From a virus: a DNA stretch of 64,000 bases. The translations under genes and the position numbers were made by a program. The first letter of the stretch is position 1, and the number at the start of each line of letters is the position of its first letter. The notes beneath the pieces are model-generated. The model was given only the letters and a program-made list of their open reading frames with translations, did no database searches and was not told the DNA's origin. This document shows positions 1-10,840 of this stretch, piece after piece. The DNA is taken from positions 1 to 64,000 of IMG/VR virus record IMGVR_UViG_3300008255_000101. One strand, written 5' to 3'.

Positions 1-82
1 AAAAAAGAGATCCTGACTCTGTTAGATTTATTAGTGTCTTGGGGGCTTCTTCTCGCTCATCCATAAGTTTGTCCTTTTCCAT
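1..82 (-). CDS. Start of second integron cassette ORF, runs off the window (MEKDKLMDEREEAPKTLINLTESGSLF...), function unknown
   Basis: Open frame from ATG 82 (or ATG 64, preceded by AAGGA) to the window edge; begins 13 nt after the attC core GTTAGAC, as is typical of cassette ORFs. Not in the ORF track because it is truncated. Confidence 0.6.
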   Translation of the reverse strand, partial: MEKDKLMDEREEAPKTLINLTESGSLF

Positions 83-95
83 TTTGTATTTGTCC

Positions 96-346
96 GTCTA
101 ACGTCCAGTTTAGCTGCGGCGCAAATGCGAGCCACTGGGAGAAAGCCCAGGCGTTACGATTTTCTGGTTCATGTCTGAAATGTAGTTTCCTAAACCAGGA
201 AATCGTGCAATGAGCTTCGAACGACTTACTGGCAGTCCTACTGCCAGTTGGAGTGGCGTTTCGCGAAGCGAAATGCGAATGCGAATTGCCGCCTGGAGCG
301 TCGACCGATGAATCACCTGCGCTGCCAGCTACAACGTTTGTTATGC
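96..346 (-). mobile_element. attC recombination site (integron cassette), unusually long (251 bp)
   Basis: Minus strand reads GCATAAC-AAACG-TTGTAGCTGGCAGCGCA ... TGCGCCGCAGCTAAA-CTGGAC-GTTAGAC. Inverse core at one end, GTTRRRY core at the other, complementary arms with two extra (extrahelical) bases in one arm, and a G-T pair favouring folding of the bottom (+) strand. The inverse core GCATAAC is the exact complement of GTTATGC at the cassette start (1108-1114). Confidence 0.85.
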
Positions 347-406
347 TATGGGTTACTATTCATGCACCGGGATTTTATTCAACCACTAAATATGGCCTAA
401 CTCTGA

Positions 407-718
407 TTAACTAACCAAAATCTTTGCAAGTTGTTTTTTGGTGCCACCCAATGAGATCAAGGAACGAATCATCAATTCAATTGATACGGAAGGATCAGCC
501 TTTTCAATTTTTGCAACGCGCGATTGACTAGACTTGATCAATTTTGCTAATGCAACTTGTGTTACGTTCTTGTCCTTGCGTGTATCTTGAATAGCTTTGG
601 CCAGCGCCAATTTCATATCAATTATCGCCATGTCAGCTCTGTCCAAGTCCAGAAACTCATCGACGTCACCAATTTTCCAACCCTTGGCAGCAATTCGTTC
701 TTTTTTGGATTTCAACAT
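407..718 (-). CDS. XRE/HTH antitoxin of type II TA pair (HigA-like)
   Basis: HTH segment TQVALAKLIKSSQSRVAKIEKADPSVSIELMIRSL; lies downstream of the toxin. Start at 718 chosen because GAGGTG precedes it (ORF track starts at 730). Confidence 0.85.
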   Translation of the reverse strand: MLKSKKERIAAKGWKIGDVDEFLDLDRADMAIIDMKLALAKAIQDTRKDKNVTQVALAKLIKSSQSRVAKIEKADPSVSIELMIRSLISLGGTKKQLAKILVS

Positions 719-726
719 ATCACACC

Positions 727-1056
727 TCATGCATCATAAGATGCCAAACGAGCCTTACAAAGCTCAATAGTTGCCTTCGTCGTCTTTTCTGACTTTTTCT
801 CTTCCCAATGAATCATTACAATGCAATCAGTATCAATTCGATAAAAGAATCTCCACGTTACTTTCTCGTCATTTATACGAAGCTCGTGAACTCTTTTACC
901 AACGGATGGCATTGGTCTGCTATGCGGCATTGAAAGCATTATCCCCGACTGAATTAGACGAATCAAATACCCAGTCTCAATTCTGGCAGCCATTGAAAAA
1001 GGCGGTGACTTTGGAACGCCGATCATCCACGCTAATGGTTTATGGTCTGGACTCAT
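727..1056 (-). CDS. Type II toxin, RelE/HigB superfamily (phage gp49-like)
   Basis: Motifs MPHSRPMPSVG..VHELRI..WRFFYRID...KKSEKT typical of gp49/HigB-like toxins; toxin-first order with the XRE antitoxin. Confidence 0.85.
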   Translation of the reverse strand: MSPDHKPLAWMIGVPKSPPFSMAARIETGYLIRLIQSGIMLSMPHSRPMPSVGKRVHELRINDEKVTWRFFYRIDTDCIVMIHWEEKKSEKTTKATIELCKARLASYDA

Positions 1057-1062
1057 GAGTTA

Positions 1063-1091
1063 AGTATATATCATATCTGACATATTGTCAA
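1063..1091 (-). promoter_or_regulatory. Sigma-70 promoter of the TA cassette with an overlapping palindromic operator; probably leaderless transcript
   Basis: Minus strand TTGACA-N17-TATACT, then only 6 nt to the toxin ATG. The imperfect palindrome ATATGTCA-GATA-TGATATAT fills the spacer. Confidence 0.8.
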
Positions 1092-1107
1092 GTCGCTATT
1101 TTCATTA

Positions 1108-1176
1108 GCATAACTCCGTATTTACCGGAAACATGTCCTCATAACATCTTTTAGGTGGACAACATTCCTCATAACA
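1108..1176 (-). mobile_element. attI-like integron site: core GTTATGC plus two upstream direct repeats
   Basis: Minus strand TGTTATGAGGA (1166-1176) ... TGTTATGAGGA (1136-1146) ... TCCGGTAAATACGGA-GTTATGC (core 1108-1114). Three GTTATG cores spaced about 30 bp apart. No upstream inverse core or complementary arm, so it is not an attC. Confidence 0.65.
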
Positions 1177-1187
1177 CACTTATTGAA

Positions 1188-1216
1188 AATATACTACAGT
1201 TCCCGACTTTTTTAAC
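1188..1216 (-). promoter_or_regulatory. Putative Pc-like promoter reading into attI (GTTAAAAAA-N14-TATATT)
   Basis: TTAAAA-N16-TATATT overlapping the glycosyltransferase stop codon; same architecture as the promoters at 10576-10605 and 10811-10840. Confidence 0.5.
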
Positions 1217-1919
1217 CCCATCTAAGCAAACTTCCTGATTTACCCTCAGATCTCATCTTAGAGGCCAGTATTTCCCTCTTACCGTGTTGGGTAGCGTCGT
1301 GATCCTTAGTGACTTGGGTGTCAAAGGTACCCCTGACCCAGGCGTACCTGGGAAATGTGCCGCAAGTTAAACCCAAATGGGCGCCTACGTCTCCTAACGA
1401 CATATCCTCATAACCCCACAAACCATCGAAGCAAGGATTAAACAGAAAGCCGCCGTTGTACGCGGTTATGGTGTTTAAGGCACTAGAGCTTATTAAAAAC
1501 CCAGCAGTGTATACTCCATTCTTACAGGACCCCCATTTATCGTTGGGGGAGAAGTCGAAGTCCTTGAAAAATTTTCGGTGATCGCGGGAAACCCCCAGCA
1601 GGGTGATGTCGTACTTACGGGAAGCCTCTTCTAGCAAACTATCGCTAAGACCCGACGGTACTCTGTCCCCGTCCAGCATAAGTACGGGGCTGGTGTACCC
1701 CACATGGGAAAGACCCACGTTCCTTACTCTACCTGCCTCCCAACCGTCACCATCGTCTTTAATGATGTACTCTTCCCCCAAACTGTCCAGTAGGTCCGAG
1801 GATCCGTCAGTACACCTATCCAGTACAAATAGCCTTGGGAAACTTAGCTGAGCTCTAAGGGAATACACCATCTCGCTTAGTAGCGCCGCCTGGTTATGGC
1901 TTATGATTACGACACGCAC
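1212..1919 (-). CDS. Glycosyltransferase family 2 (GT-A fold)
   Basis: N-terminal VVIISHNQ, DRCTDGS, DxD motif (MLDGD) and FDGLWGYED acceptor-side motif. Confidence 0.85.
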   Translation of the reverse strand: MRVVIISHNQAALLSEMVYSLRAQLSFPRLFVLDRCTDGSSDLLDSLGEEYIIKDDGDGWEAGRVRNVGLSHVGYTSPVLMLDGDRVPSGLSDSLLEEASRKYDITLLGVSRDHRKFFKDFDFSPNDKWGSCKNGVYTAGFLISSSALNTITAYNGGFLFNPCFDGLWGYEDMSLGDVGAHLGLTCGTFPRYAWVRGTFDTQVTKDHDATQHGKREILASKMRSEGKSGSLLRWG

Positions 1920-3448: not shown

Positions 3449-4474
3449 TCATTGCTTTTCATACTTAAGCCCCGCGAAGGATCCTATGACCCTTTCCACT
3501 TTGAGCCTGTTGGGAGCGTCGAAGTCCTTAGCTACCCGCCCAGCATGACGTACAAAATCCTTGGATGTCCCCATATCATCACCGGCATCCTGAGCTTCCA
3601 ACAGGATGGATCGTTTTAATTTACTGGGAGCGCCCTTGATTTTTGAAAGAAGCATGCATGATCTTTCCAAACCGGGGAAGGATCCTTCGGAGTCGGTCAG
3701 GCTATCTAGGTACCTTACCGCATCCTCGTGGACTCTTGAAGGGATGGAATTCAGCATCTCCTGAACCTCAGTGGGTTGTACCCTTGCGTATTGGATCTTG
3801 GCAAAGGGTTGGCCGCCATACTGAGCGACCGCGTAGGTCTTCGACTCTGCATGGTAGAGGAATGAGTCGATTATCAAGTCAGATGCTCCGACTTCGCTGG
3901 CAGTGATAGCCACACCCACGGTGTACTCTCCGTCCAACTCCTTATTGTAAATGATCCTGACATGAGTGGTCAGGCAATCCCTCTCCATACCTGTACAGGC
4001 ATCCTCATCCACATCTATGGTGACTTCCTCGGGAAACACCGCCAGGGATGAGACTATCTCATGCAGAGGTAGCACAGCATAATTTATGGGAAGCACCGCC
4101 CGTATGGCCTTAGTGGGGGCACCCTCACGGATGCGAAGCATCACCAGGGTCTCGTCCCCCTCTTTGGGGGCATAGGATGCTAGCCACTGGCCAACCATCT
4201 GGTTACGCACGTTGGGTCGATTACTGGCGAAAAAAGGAAATGGCACTCCCACAATCTTGCAGAACTGTCTCTGGGCCTGAGTCCTTACGGGGTCCATGGG
4301 CTTATCTGGGCTGGCCTTGAACATATACCGTTCGTTGGTAGCCTCATCATGCAAGTACATTTCCTCGTCATCCGAATGGAACTTCACCCTACGCAGATCT
4401 ATTACTACGTCGACACAGTTCTCATCGATGGCCTCCAGCCGCCGTATGACATCTTGAAGGTTTTCGGATCTCAT
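3449..4474 (-). CDS. DUF932-like phage/plasmid protein
   Basis: AQRQFCKIVGVP, IRAVLPINY and GVAITASEVGASDLIIDSFLY resemble the DUF932 signatures (IRAVLSxxY; GxxIxNSEVG). Confidence 0.6.
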   Translation of the reverse strand: MRSENLQDVIRRLEAIDENCVDVVIDLRRVKFHSDDEEMYLHDEATNERYMFKASPDKPMDPVRTQAQRQFCKIVGVPFPFFASNRPNVRNQMVGQWLASYAPKEGDETLVMLRIREGAPTKAIRAVLPINYAVLPLHEIVSSLAVFPEEVTIDVDEDACTGMERDCLTTHVRIIYNKELDGEYTVGVAITASEVGASDLIIDSFLYHAESKTYAVAQYGGQPFAKIQYARVQPTEVQEMLNSIPSRVHEDAVRYLDSLTDSEGSFPGLERSCMLLSKIKGAPSKLKRSILLEAQDAGDDMGTSKDFVRHAGRVAKDFDAPNRLKVERVIGSFAGLKYEKQ

Positions 4475-10575: not shown

Positions 10576-10605
10576 AATATAAAGGGCCGGACTCAATTTT
10601 TTAAC
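10576..10605 (-). promoter_or_regulatory. Putative promoter TTAAAA-N17-TATATT followed by AGGAG RBS
   Basis: Direct sequence upstream of the DnaC-like gene. Confidence 0.55.
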
Positions 10606-10810: not shown

Positions 10811-10840
10811 ATTATAGGGGCATACACGGGATTTTTTAAC
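10811..10840 (-). promoter_or_regulatory. Putative promoter TTAAAA-N17-TATAAT followed by AGGAG RBS
   Basis: Consensus -10, 17-bp spacer, overlaps the SNF2 stop codon. Confidence 0.6.

Follow-up and report, generated by a model that had tools for sequence, protein, structure and literature searches.

A probable integron cassette array without a detected integrase, bordered by an attI-like flank, in a very large uncultured phage

Integrons are regarded as gene-capture systems of bacteria, and their cassettes are rich in anti-phage defences. The locus described here raises the question of whether a phage can hold such a cassette array itself, and how it would have come by one. It lies at the left end of the window (the whole 64,000-nucleotide stretch that was analysed, bases 1-64000 of the linear 150,182-bp IMG/VR virus record IMGVR_UViG_3300008255_000101). 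An initial annotation had described, on the minus strand, a family 2 glycosyltransferase (GT2) gene followed by an attI-like site, a toxin-antitoxin cassette, an attC site and the next open reading frame (ORF), and all of these were found where it had placed them. The details it gave were also present, namely a core GTTATGC at 1114-1108, two 11-bp direct repeats 30 bp apart (from 1176 and 1146), and a cassette-start core that is the exact complement of the attC inverse core (GTTATGC/GCATAAC). We consider it highly probable that these are the first elements of a group of clustered attC sites without integron integrases (CALIN), inside a very large, probably virulent, uncultured phage.

The array and its continuation past the contig end

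The array measured ~3.6 kb and contained eight co-oriented cassettes, running from window position 1114 leftwards, past the window end, and lying between the phage GT2 gene and a gene of family phrog_22562. Window position 1 is the contig end and falls inside the ORF of cassette 2, and the array starts 1.2 kb from that end. An exact-protein look-up with the toxin of cassette 1 returned a 122-kb ENA contig, ERZ27293386:k141_550153. The locus on this contig, L001, is 100% identical to window 10993-1 (10,993 bp) and runs on beyond the window end; by the count of the same look-up, a second contig, of the 20-50 kb class, also carries the toxin gene. Positions convert as L001 position = 10994 - window position, and the array ends at L001 13516, its remainder outside the window being L001 10994-13516. 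The features are as follows, all in the direction of the array.

Window 1212-1919, minus strand: GT2-like glycosyltransferase gene, 235 aa, last of the backbone genes ahead of the array (Pfam Glycos_transf_2 match under the cut-off, E 3.7e-4)
L001 9783-9879, gene strand: flank
Window 1188-1216, minus strand: phage-type promoter-like site GTTAAAAAA-N14-TATATT, overlapping the GT2 stop codon and facing the array
Window 1166-1176, minus strand: direct repeat 1, TGTTATGAGGA, exact over 11 bp and holding a core-like GTTATG
Window 1136-1146, minus strand: direct repeat 2, TGTTATGAGGA, 30 bp after repeat 1 and 31 bp before the core
Window 1108-1126, minus strand: first-cassette junction, with L-like box GGTAAATAC, a 3-nt spacer and core G|TTATGC
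From L001 9880: cassette 1, the predicted toxin-antitoxin pair
Window 1063-1091, minus strand: cassette 1 promoter of sigma-70 type, TTGACA-17-TATACT, 11/12 matches, near consensus
Window 727-1056, minus strand: toxin gene, Gp49/HigB-like, RelE superfamily, 109 aa (Pfam PF05973, E 9.3e-11)
Window 407-730, minus strand: antitoxin gene, XRE/HigA-like helix-turn-helix, 107 aa (Pfam HTH_37 and HTH_3 above cut-offs)
Window 96-346, minus strand (L001 10648-10898): attC1, 251 nt, branched interior, R'' GCATAAC, R' GTTAGAC, fold z -3.7 / -4.2 by strand
Window 1-82, minus strand, the rest in L001: cassette 2, ORF of 126 aa starting at window 82
L001 11287-11344: attC2
Between attC2 and attC3: cassette 3, 66 aa
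L001 11554-11607: attC3
Between attC3 and attC4: cassette 4, 68 aa
L001 11806-11886: attC4
Between attC4 and attC5: cassette 5, ORFs of 58 and 69 aa, with a degenerate site at L001 12083
L001 12243-12332: attC5
Between attC5 and attC6: cassette 6, 80 aa
L001 12595-12639: attC6, atypical
L001 12659-13063: cassette 7, 134 aa
L001 13047-13106: attC7
Between attC7 and attC8: cassette 8, 111 aa
L001 13469-13516: attC8

A CALIN, as IntegronFinder defines it, is two or more attC sites with no integron integrase nearby. Eight attC sites were present within 3.6 kb. Searches of the 150-kb record with PF00589 and the integron-integrase model TIGR02249 gave no match at E <= 1, and no recombinase was among the genes called at positions 65,707-114,222 of the ENA record. 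Taking both stretches together, no tyrosine recombinase was found in ~188 kb, and the element was therefore classed as a CALIN. A complete integron has intI beside attI and divergent from the cassettes; the neighbour here is the co-oriented phage GT2 gene.

The array was not confined to one assembly. Its sequence recurs in four or five data sets, and besides the 122-kb contig, four other contigs, drawn from three further data sets (ERZ27293400, JGI 3300004210 and SRR6053076), match either the array or the junction at its right with 100% identity. All overlapping contigs from these data sets and ERZ27293386 are 100% identical, and both junctions are covered. With the IMG/VR record and the ENA contig combined, the phage is assembled over at least 188 kb. 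CheckV put the completeness of the 150,182-bp record at 32%; this record has no terminal repeat and its far end cuts an ORF. A blastn comparison of window 1-1216 with phages and plasmids gave no match.

Repeat analysis of L001 found seven R''-type boxes, GCCTAACAAnCGTTGAACC, alternating with seven R'-type boxes, ...CGTTAGGC, all within L001 10648-13524. Across this region GC ranged from 0.35 to 0.46 and returned to ~0.5 beyond it. The flank had a GC content of 0.36 and the array one of 0.42, both lower than in the phage DNA to the two sides (0.50 and 0.48).

Phage genes border the array on both sides. To its left are genes for DnaB, primase, a family A polymerase, ParB and GT2. To the right of attC8, a ribosome-binding site and the phrog_22562 gene (E 3.6e-22) are followed by a phrog_18518 gene (E 6e-41) and, further on, by a sugar-modification cluster and HNH, methyltransferase, thioredoxin, HA-domain, rIIA-like, rIIB and exonuclease genes, phage genes spanning more than 20 kb in all. 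Related phage contigs (L100-L106) share the order polA, ParB, a 157-aa gene and GT2, the GT2 proteins being 47-53% identical; relatives of this GT2 in the viral contigs were not found directly, and the distant ones were reached by protein search. The common order resumes to the right of the array with a 95-aa gene and then the thioredoxin and HA-domain gene. In the related phages a gene of 101-109 aa directly follows GT2, and its homologue here lies 9.45 kb further on, so the array lies within an accessory stretch of a conserved phage backbone. Measured against the related phages, the extra DNA between GT2 and the conserved 95-aa gene amounts to ~9.45 kb (L001:9783-19236).

Two further observations concern this neighbourhood. 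The sugar-modification cluster that this phage carries further on, compared with the related phages, covers ~10 kb (L007:11243-20741) and includes genes for a UDP-glucose dehydrogenase, several GT2 proteins, an acetyltransferase, a DegT aminotransferase, a nucleotidyltransferase, a methyltransferase and an epimerase. The phrog_22562 gene (L001:13537-13561) seems to have lost its start: the ATG that has a good ribosome-binding site is shifted out of frame by one base, at four consecutive A. Without that base its N-terminus aligns with the starts of its homologues (MKGKYLITTDSWF...), and the sequence of L001:13537-13561 is identical in every assembly covering that position.

Part of what the initial annotation had expected of the locus was borne out by these results. 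No integrase stands beside the array, the region is more AT-rich than the phage genes (GC 0.36-0.42 against 0.50), and the array sits inside a large phage genome in which phage rather than host genes resume after it. With the contig extended to the left through L001, both junctions recurred in several assemblies and seven more attC sites followed attC1, and none of the three outcomes that the annotation had named as refuting was observed.

The attC sites and the cassettes

To detect attC sites, we used a narrow covariance model whose sole sources were three class 1 sites, those of aadA1, aadA2 and psp in the integron of the phage P1 record MH445380; R/L pairing followed the textbook scheme, and two bases were bulged. 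It was run over 139,689 bases, made up of the window, two cassette contigs of bacterial type and three parts of the ENA contig, and ~325 kb was searched in all. Five matches were obtained, all in the array, on the gene strand and directly after ORFs, at the places read by eye, with E-values of 3.1e-8, 1.4e-7, 2.7e-7, 3.5e-6 and 0.3. With the filters off, attC7 appeared as a sixth site at E 0.41. No array match came from the remaining 86 kb of the phage record or from contigs of related phages, and there was none in ~185 kb of other phage DNA. As a control, the attC of cmlA1, which lies outside the model, scored 35.8 bits, in the same range as the phage sites. The genuine estX and dfr attC sites were also missed, so a miss by this model says little.

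The sites share the architecture expected of attC. An R'' and an R' box stand at the ends of all eight, six of the R'' boxes strictly fitting RYYYAAC, and R' matches R'' within the same site in two. Seven sites were folded, and the bottom strands of attC2, attC3, attC5, attC7 and attC8 formed R/L hairpins (fold z -2.2 to -4.7). Genes and sites are closely packed: the stop codons of cassettes 2, 3 and 6 fall inside R'' (that of cassette 2 in the L001 continuation, inside R'' of attC2), and the ORFs of cassettes 4 and 5b (the second of cassette 5) run into the site.

IntI crosses over at G|TT, and the start of an inserted cassette should pair with that cassette's own R'' and not with the R'' of the abutting site. 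At the first junction the core GTTATGC (1114-1108) provides TTATGC, which complements the cassette 1 inverse core GCATAA. The first six bases complement the cassette's own R'' in cassettes 1, 2, 3, 4 and 8 (5/8, permutation p = 0.028), or in 6/8 if cassette 7 is counted through a GTTATGC at L001 12712 (permutation p = 0.007). This GTTATGC was rejected as the R' of attC6 or as a junction, as it encodes a conserved Leu-Leu-Cys. The heptamer has 16 occurrences in the 150-kb contig, and a match to it is weak by itself. The downstream sequence, for which an independent contig is the source, makes it decisive; there the rule extends to five or six of the eight cassettes, and seven more attC sites appear. 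By their cores, their palindromic agreement with external sites, their position after ORFs and the complement to their own R'', we take these to be attC sites that have probably recombined. An integron integrase acting at G|TT would have joined the cassettes, and both ends of the array lie exactly at such points. It would have acted in trans, from the host, a co-resident element or an unassembled part of the phage.

attC1 is the longest of the eight. Two attC sites of 295 nt, which delimit cassettes in a metagenomic array (contig L112), are homologous to it. A structure shared by the three sites comprises 72 pairs, of which 15 show compensatory changes, the outer R and L stems included. Sites of this kind form a very long attC family of 251-295 nt, found at window 96-346, at L112:3205-3499 and 4001-4295, and at L109:7750-7880 in a second contig. 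The interior of the family holds the conserved blocks CTCCAGGCGGCAATTCG, TAAGTCGTTCGAAnCTCATTGCAC and GTAACGCCTGGGCTC and one inner hairpin with compensatory changes. Rfam returned no family over L001 and L112, and genome contigs scanned with the left arm of attC4/5 and with the inner motif of the long attC gave nothing.

Cassette 1 is predicted to encode a HigBA-like type II toxin-antitoxin pair with its own promoter and a palindromic operator. The toxin gene comes first and the antitoxin gene overlaps it by 4 bp. The toxin reached 42.1 bits against PF05973 (cut-off 23.9) and has 647 homologues of 109-119 aa, most spanning 94-100% of the query. The antitoxin reached 32 bits against HTH_37 (cut-off 27), and an NCBIfam Y4mF-family match (E 3.6e-8) was below its cut-off. 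A palindrome, TGACAATATGTCA, spans the -35 box of the promoter. The stretch TTGACAATATGTCAGATATGATATATA is identical in a homologous cassette whose toxin is 69% identical (L109 and L112); this homologue in a metagenomic array shares the promoter-operator stretch and the long attC family. Since no terminator-like site was found on the gene strand of the array, the cassette 1 promoter could serve the whole of it, and it probably drives the seven promoter-less cassettes behind, possibly together with the phage-type promoter upstream. The pair could contribute to array stabilisation, to transcription of the later cassettes or to phage-host conflict.

The L109 and L112 contigs also carry, divergent to the toxin-antitoxin homologue, an Xer-like tyrosine recombinase of 399-404 aa (L109:6388-7587; L112:908-2122). 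Only the 3' half of a long attC lies between the two, and it looks as if an attC there was the insertion target of a mobile element (DUF3631 and others). Because it is of the Xer type, interrupts a long attC and is not matched by TIGR02249, this recombinase, present in L109-L114, was not accepted as an IntI.

None of the proteins of cassettes 2-8 matched a Pfam, PHROG or PADLOC family above threshold, and an Atlas search with the cassette 2 protein gave no usable match. The 69-aa ORF of cassette 5 (L001:12110-12319) weakly resembles CD-NTase/DncV cyclases in their C-terminal part, below threshold (Pfam E 0.0034, PADLOC E 0.0023), and may be a gene fragment. The cassette 7 protein (L001:12659-13063) has 519 homologues, up to 94% identical and many on contigs of ~1 kb with differing neighbours; some are on another phage-like contig (Prim-Pol, HNH). 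The family has an invariant motif, WFSLGWWGGRLDIDGSL, and its predicted fold is confident (mean pLDDT 84, pTM 0.76), with no match at E <= 0.001 when the model was compared with the PDB by Foldseek. One homologue, 87% identical to the phage copy, is a single protein found on four contigs, each with different neighbours (L126:7000-10800; L129, L130, L131), one of them phage-like (Prim-Pol, HNH/NUMOD4). The four diverge right after GCATAACG, at the R''-like end and not at R', which may be a sign of an array type whose genes are turned round with respect to the sites.

Overall, the lower GC, the toxin-antitoxin homologue in a metagenomic array and the varied neighbours of the cassette 7 family indicate that the cassettes are of foreign origin. 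Length (45-251 nt) and family vary among the attC sites, and the cassettes range in GC from 0.35 to 0.46, which suggests several sources.

Several observations weigh against reading the locus as a CALIN behind an attI-like flank. attC1 and attC6 went undetected by the narrow model. GCATAAC, the R'' of attC1 and attC7, is off the consensus at one position, and the core GTTATGC departs from strict GTTRRRY at its fifth base, which is T and not R. The boundary between cassettes 6 and 7 is atypical, with an attC6 of 45 nt and an R' reading GTTTAAT, and cassette 5 consists of two small ORFs and a degenerate site, ACCTAACGGCTAGGT, at L001 12083-12097. No intI was seen, so recombination is inferred from sequence signatures only, and as the phage genome is incomplete an integrase could lie elsewhere in it. 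The nearest relatives share 47-53% protein identity and have no intergenic space after GT2, which leaves no empty site for comparison, and no homologue of the flank was found in viral or metagenome contigs. All data sets hold the same strain, possibly from a single habitat.

The flank and the origin of the array

Between the end of GT2 and the first cassette lies a flank of 97 bp (L001 9783-9879). Its first 30 bp hold the phage-type promoter motif and the remaining 73 bp hold the two direct repeats, the L-like box, the spacer and the core. It was rejected as an attC: a 108-nt stretch (L001 9783-9890) does not fold (z +0.2 and -0.7), and the attC model gave no match over the flank. The repeat TGTTATGAGGA occurs nowhere else in the 150-kb contig, and a repeat this long arose in 35 of 20,000 shuffles of the flank. 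The repeats were also considered as toxin-antitoxin operators and rejected, the conserved operator being the -35 palindrome and the homologous cassette having no repeats.

The promoter-like site belongs to a motif, GTTAAAAA[AT]-N12-17-TATAWT, with three copies in 168 kb, all on this strand, where shuffled sequence gives an expectation of none. Genes of the replication module follow the other two. The site in the flank also scores as a 9/12 promoter match, and we predict that it acts as a phage-type promoter. Near-identical promoter-like sites, TTTTTAGTTAAAAAAT-N14-TATAWTGGGTAGGAG, were observed at window 10576-10605 and 10811-10840 (minus strand), directly before small replication-module genes; these probably represent a phage-specific promoter class.

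The order of elements in the flank is that of attI1, as seen in at least 5,000 exact matches in a plasmid collection. The spacings are 19 and 32 bp in attI1 and 30 and 31 bp here. Beyond GTTATG there is no sequence homology to attI1, and the likeness is one of layout, not of descent. Direct repeats belong to attI1 in particular and not to attI sites in general. A metagenome scan for the direct-repeat pair returned 86 matches, all tandem repeats or chance and none a flank homologue; scans of the viral contigs for the repeat pair and for the L-R box gave one match each, both unrelated. No homologous site was found beside any intI or in another phage. The flank is a non-hairpin partner with its core at the first-cassette junction, as an attI is, and has no cognate intI adjacent. 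We conclude that it is most likely an attI-type site, active now or formerly.

How the array came to lie behind this site can be explained in several ways. One possibility, which we hold tentatively, is that the flank is a resident landing pad: the phage would keep a working attI behind its own promoter and capture cassettes repeatedly during infection, with IntI supplied in trans by the host or by an unassembled part of the phage. The non-attC character of the flank, its two significant core-like repeats, L-like box and core arranged much as in attI1, and a directly upstream promoter motif otherwise seen only before this phage's own genes all argue for it. At its end attC8 has a perfect GTTAGGC, with only ~11 nt from there to the ribosome-binding site of the phage gene, as insertion at a true core would leave, and the mixed attC lengths and families and cassette GC resemble the outcome of repeated capture more than part of a single uniform array from a chromosome. 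Against this stand the missing integrase, the failure to find the same site, empty or otherwise filled, in a second phage or bacterium, and the identity of all recovered array copies, among which no turnover was seen. The direct repeats are, moreover, a particular of attI1, and the low GC of the flank resembles that of imported DNA. The fuller proposal, in which a very large virulent phage owns an integrase-less platform (phage promoter, attI with two accessory repeats, and array) filled in trans by the stress-induced IntI of its host, is in our view doubtful; if true, the integron would be a gene-capture device common to phage and host.

An insertion at a secondary site is unlikely, though it accounts for part of the evidence. 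Here a host IntI would have placed a multi-cassette circle, or cassettes one after another, at a GWT site (attG) in a phage intergenic region, and the repeats would be incidental. IntI frequently inserts at GWT genome sites, a process proposed to give rise to lone attC sites and to CALINs of small size (Loot et al., bioRxiv 10.1101/2022.09.11.507474), and the precise G|TT points at both array ends and the lack of an integrase nearby agree with this. However, the right junction reads a full GTTAGGC, although the four bases after GTT would then be phage sequence; by our calculation the chance fit is ~1 in 16 to RRRY and ~1 in 256 to the exact AGGC. Eight cassettes are also many, as most CALINs in the survey of Loot et al. 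(bioRxiv 10.1101/2022.09.11.507474) hold two, and the significant core-like direct repeats would go unexplained.

We consider it improbable that attI and array were copied together, through homologous or illegitimate recombination, out of an integron of a bacterium or plasmid, with intI left behind. The cassette-like GC of the flank (0.36) would fit, as would the absence of intergenic DNA after GT2 in the relatives, the 97 bp being part of the ~9.45-kb stretch that they lack, and Qi et al. 2023 (PMC9892861) describe both phages bearing pieces of chromosomal integrons from hosts and one prophage whose CALIN has an attI of its own. Such a copy would, however, require a right breakpoint within ~16 nt after the last attC (~3-4% by chance, by our own estimate) and a left breakpoint in the short gap between intI and attI. 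The phage-type promoter motif in the first 30 bp of the flank also speaks against it, and no donor was found among the genome contigs scanned.

A misassembly of integron DNA onto phage DNA, or a prophage inserted between intI and attI, both of which the initial annotation had allowed for and which the array's start 1.2 kb from the contig end, its differing GC and the break of the IMG/VR contig inside cassette 2 might have suggested, is excluded to near certainty because the same sequence occurs in several independent data sets, an independent assembly crossing the contig end and four further contigs agreeing at 100%, with an integrase at neither side and more than 20 kb of phage genes following, rIIA/rIIB included, in the order common to related phages.

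Comparison with known systems

An eight-cassette array in a huge, probably virulent phage would mean that phages share the cassette pool of bacteria and can carry it from host to host. Its attI-like flank, behind a phage-type promoter, is a concrete candidate for a landing pad without an integrase of its own. The cassette proteins, a HigBA-like pair and seven proteins of no known family, are candidates for phage counter-defence or host takeover, and among them the 519-member family of cassette 7 has a confidently predicted fold without a match to a solved structure.

The system is not the first of its kind, although the initial annotation knew of no earlier account: CALINs in phages were already reported by Qi et al. 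2023 (Front Microbiol 14:1091391, PMC9892861), whose survey of 10,705 phage genomes yielded three complete integrons, one In0 and 17 CALINs. In that study IntI1 recombined five of the six attC sites tested from virulent phages; the virulent carriers included the 132-kb Pseudoalteromonas phage PH101, the prophage CALIN with its own attI was that of Shewanella M16-3, and a Vibrio phage integron held a toxin-antitoxin cassette with its own promoter. Like those CALINs, the present array consists of co-oriented, attC-bounded cassettes in a phage genome with no integron integrase. It goes beyond the short CALINs described in 2023; the virulent-phage examples illustrated there have two or three attC sites in contrast to eight cassettes here. 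The carrier phage is also far larger (at least 188 kb assembled, in a record 32% complete), and the flank has attI1-style repeats behind a phage-type promoter; the present case is known from sequence alone. It is a clean, unusually long example and not a new kind of system, set apart by the length of the array, its canonical class-1-like sites, the size of the carrier phage and the attI-like flank.

The likeness to class 1 integrons lies in the sites. attC2, attC3, attC5 and attC8 align over their full length to the aadA1/aadA2/psp model and show R'', a CCGAC-type L'' with bulged bases, and R'. In contrast to class 1 integrons, the locus has neither intI nor a Pc promoter within such a gene, and the cassettes are a toxin-antitoxin pair and ORFans instead of resistance genes.

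Sedentary chromosomal integrons, as described by Richard et al. 2024 (Sci Adv, PMC13108822) and by Qi et al. 2023 (PMC9892861), likewise hold a type II pair with its own promoter in an otherwise promoter-less array. In contrast to them, the pair here stands at the head of a short phage-borne array, as its first cassette.

Finally, the array resembles attG insertions, single attC sites lacking integron integrases (SALINs) and small CALINs (Loot et al., bioRxiv 10.1101/2022.09.11.507474) in that its cassettes lie away from an integrase and have precise G|TT junctions. It differs from the attG insertions of Loot et al. in its target, which has a full seven-base core and core-like repeats, and in holding eight cassettes.

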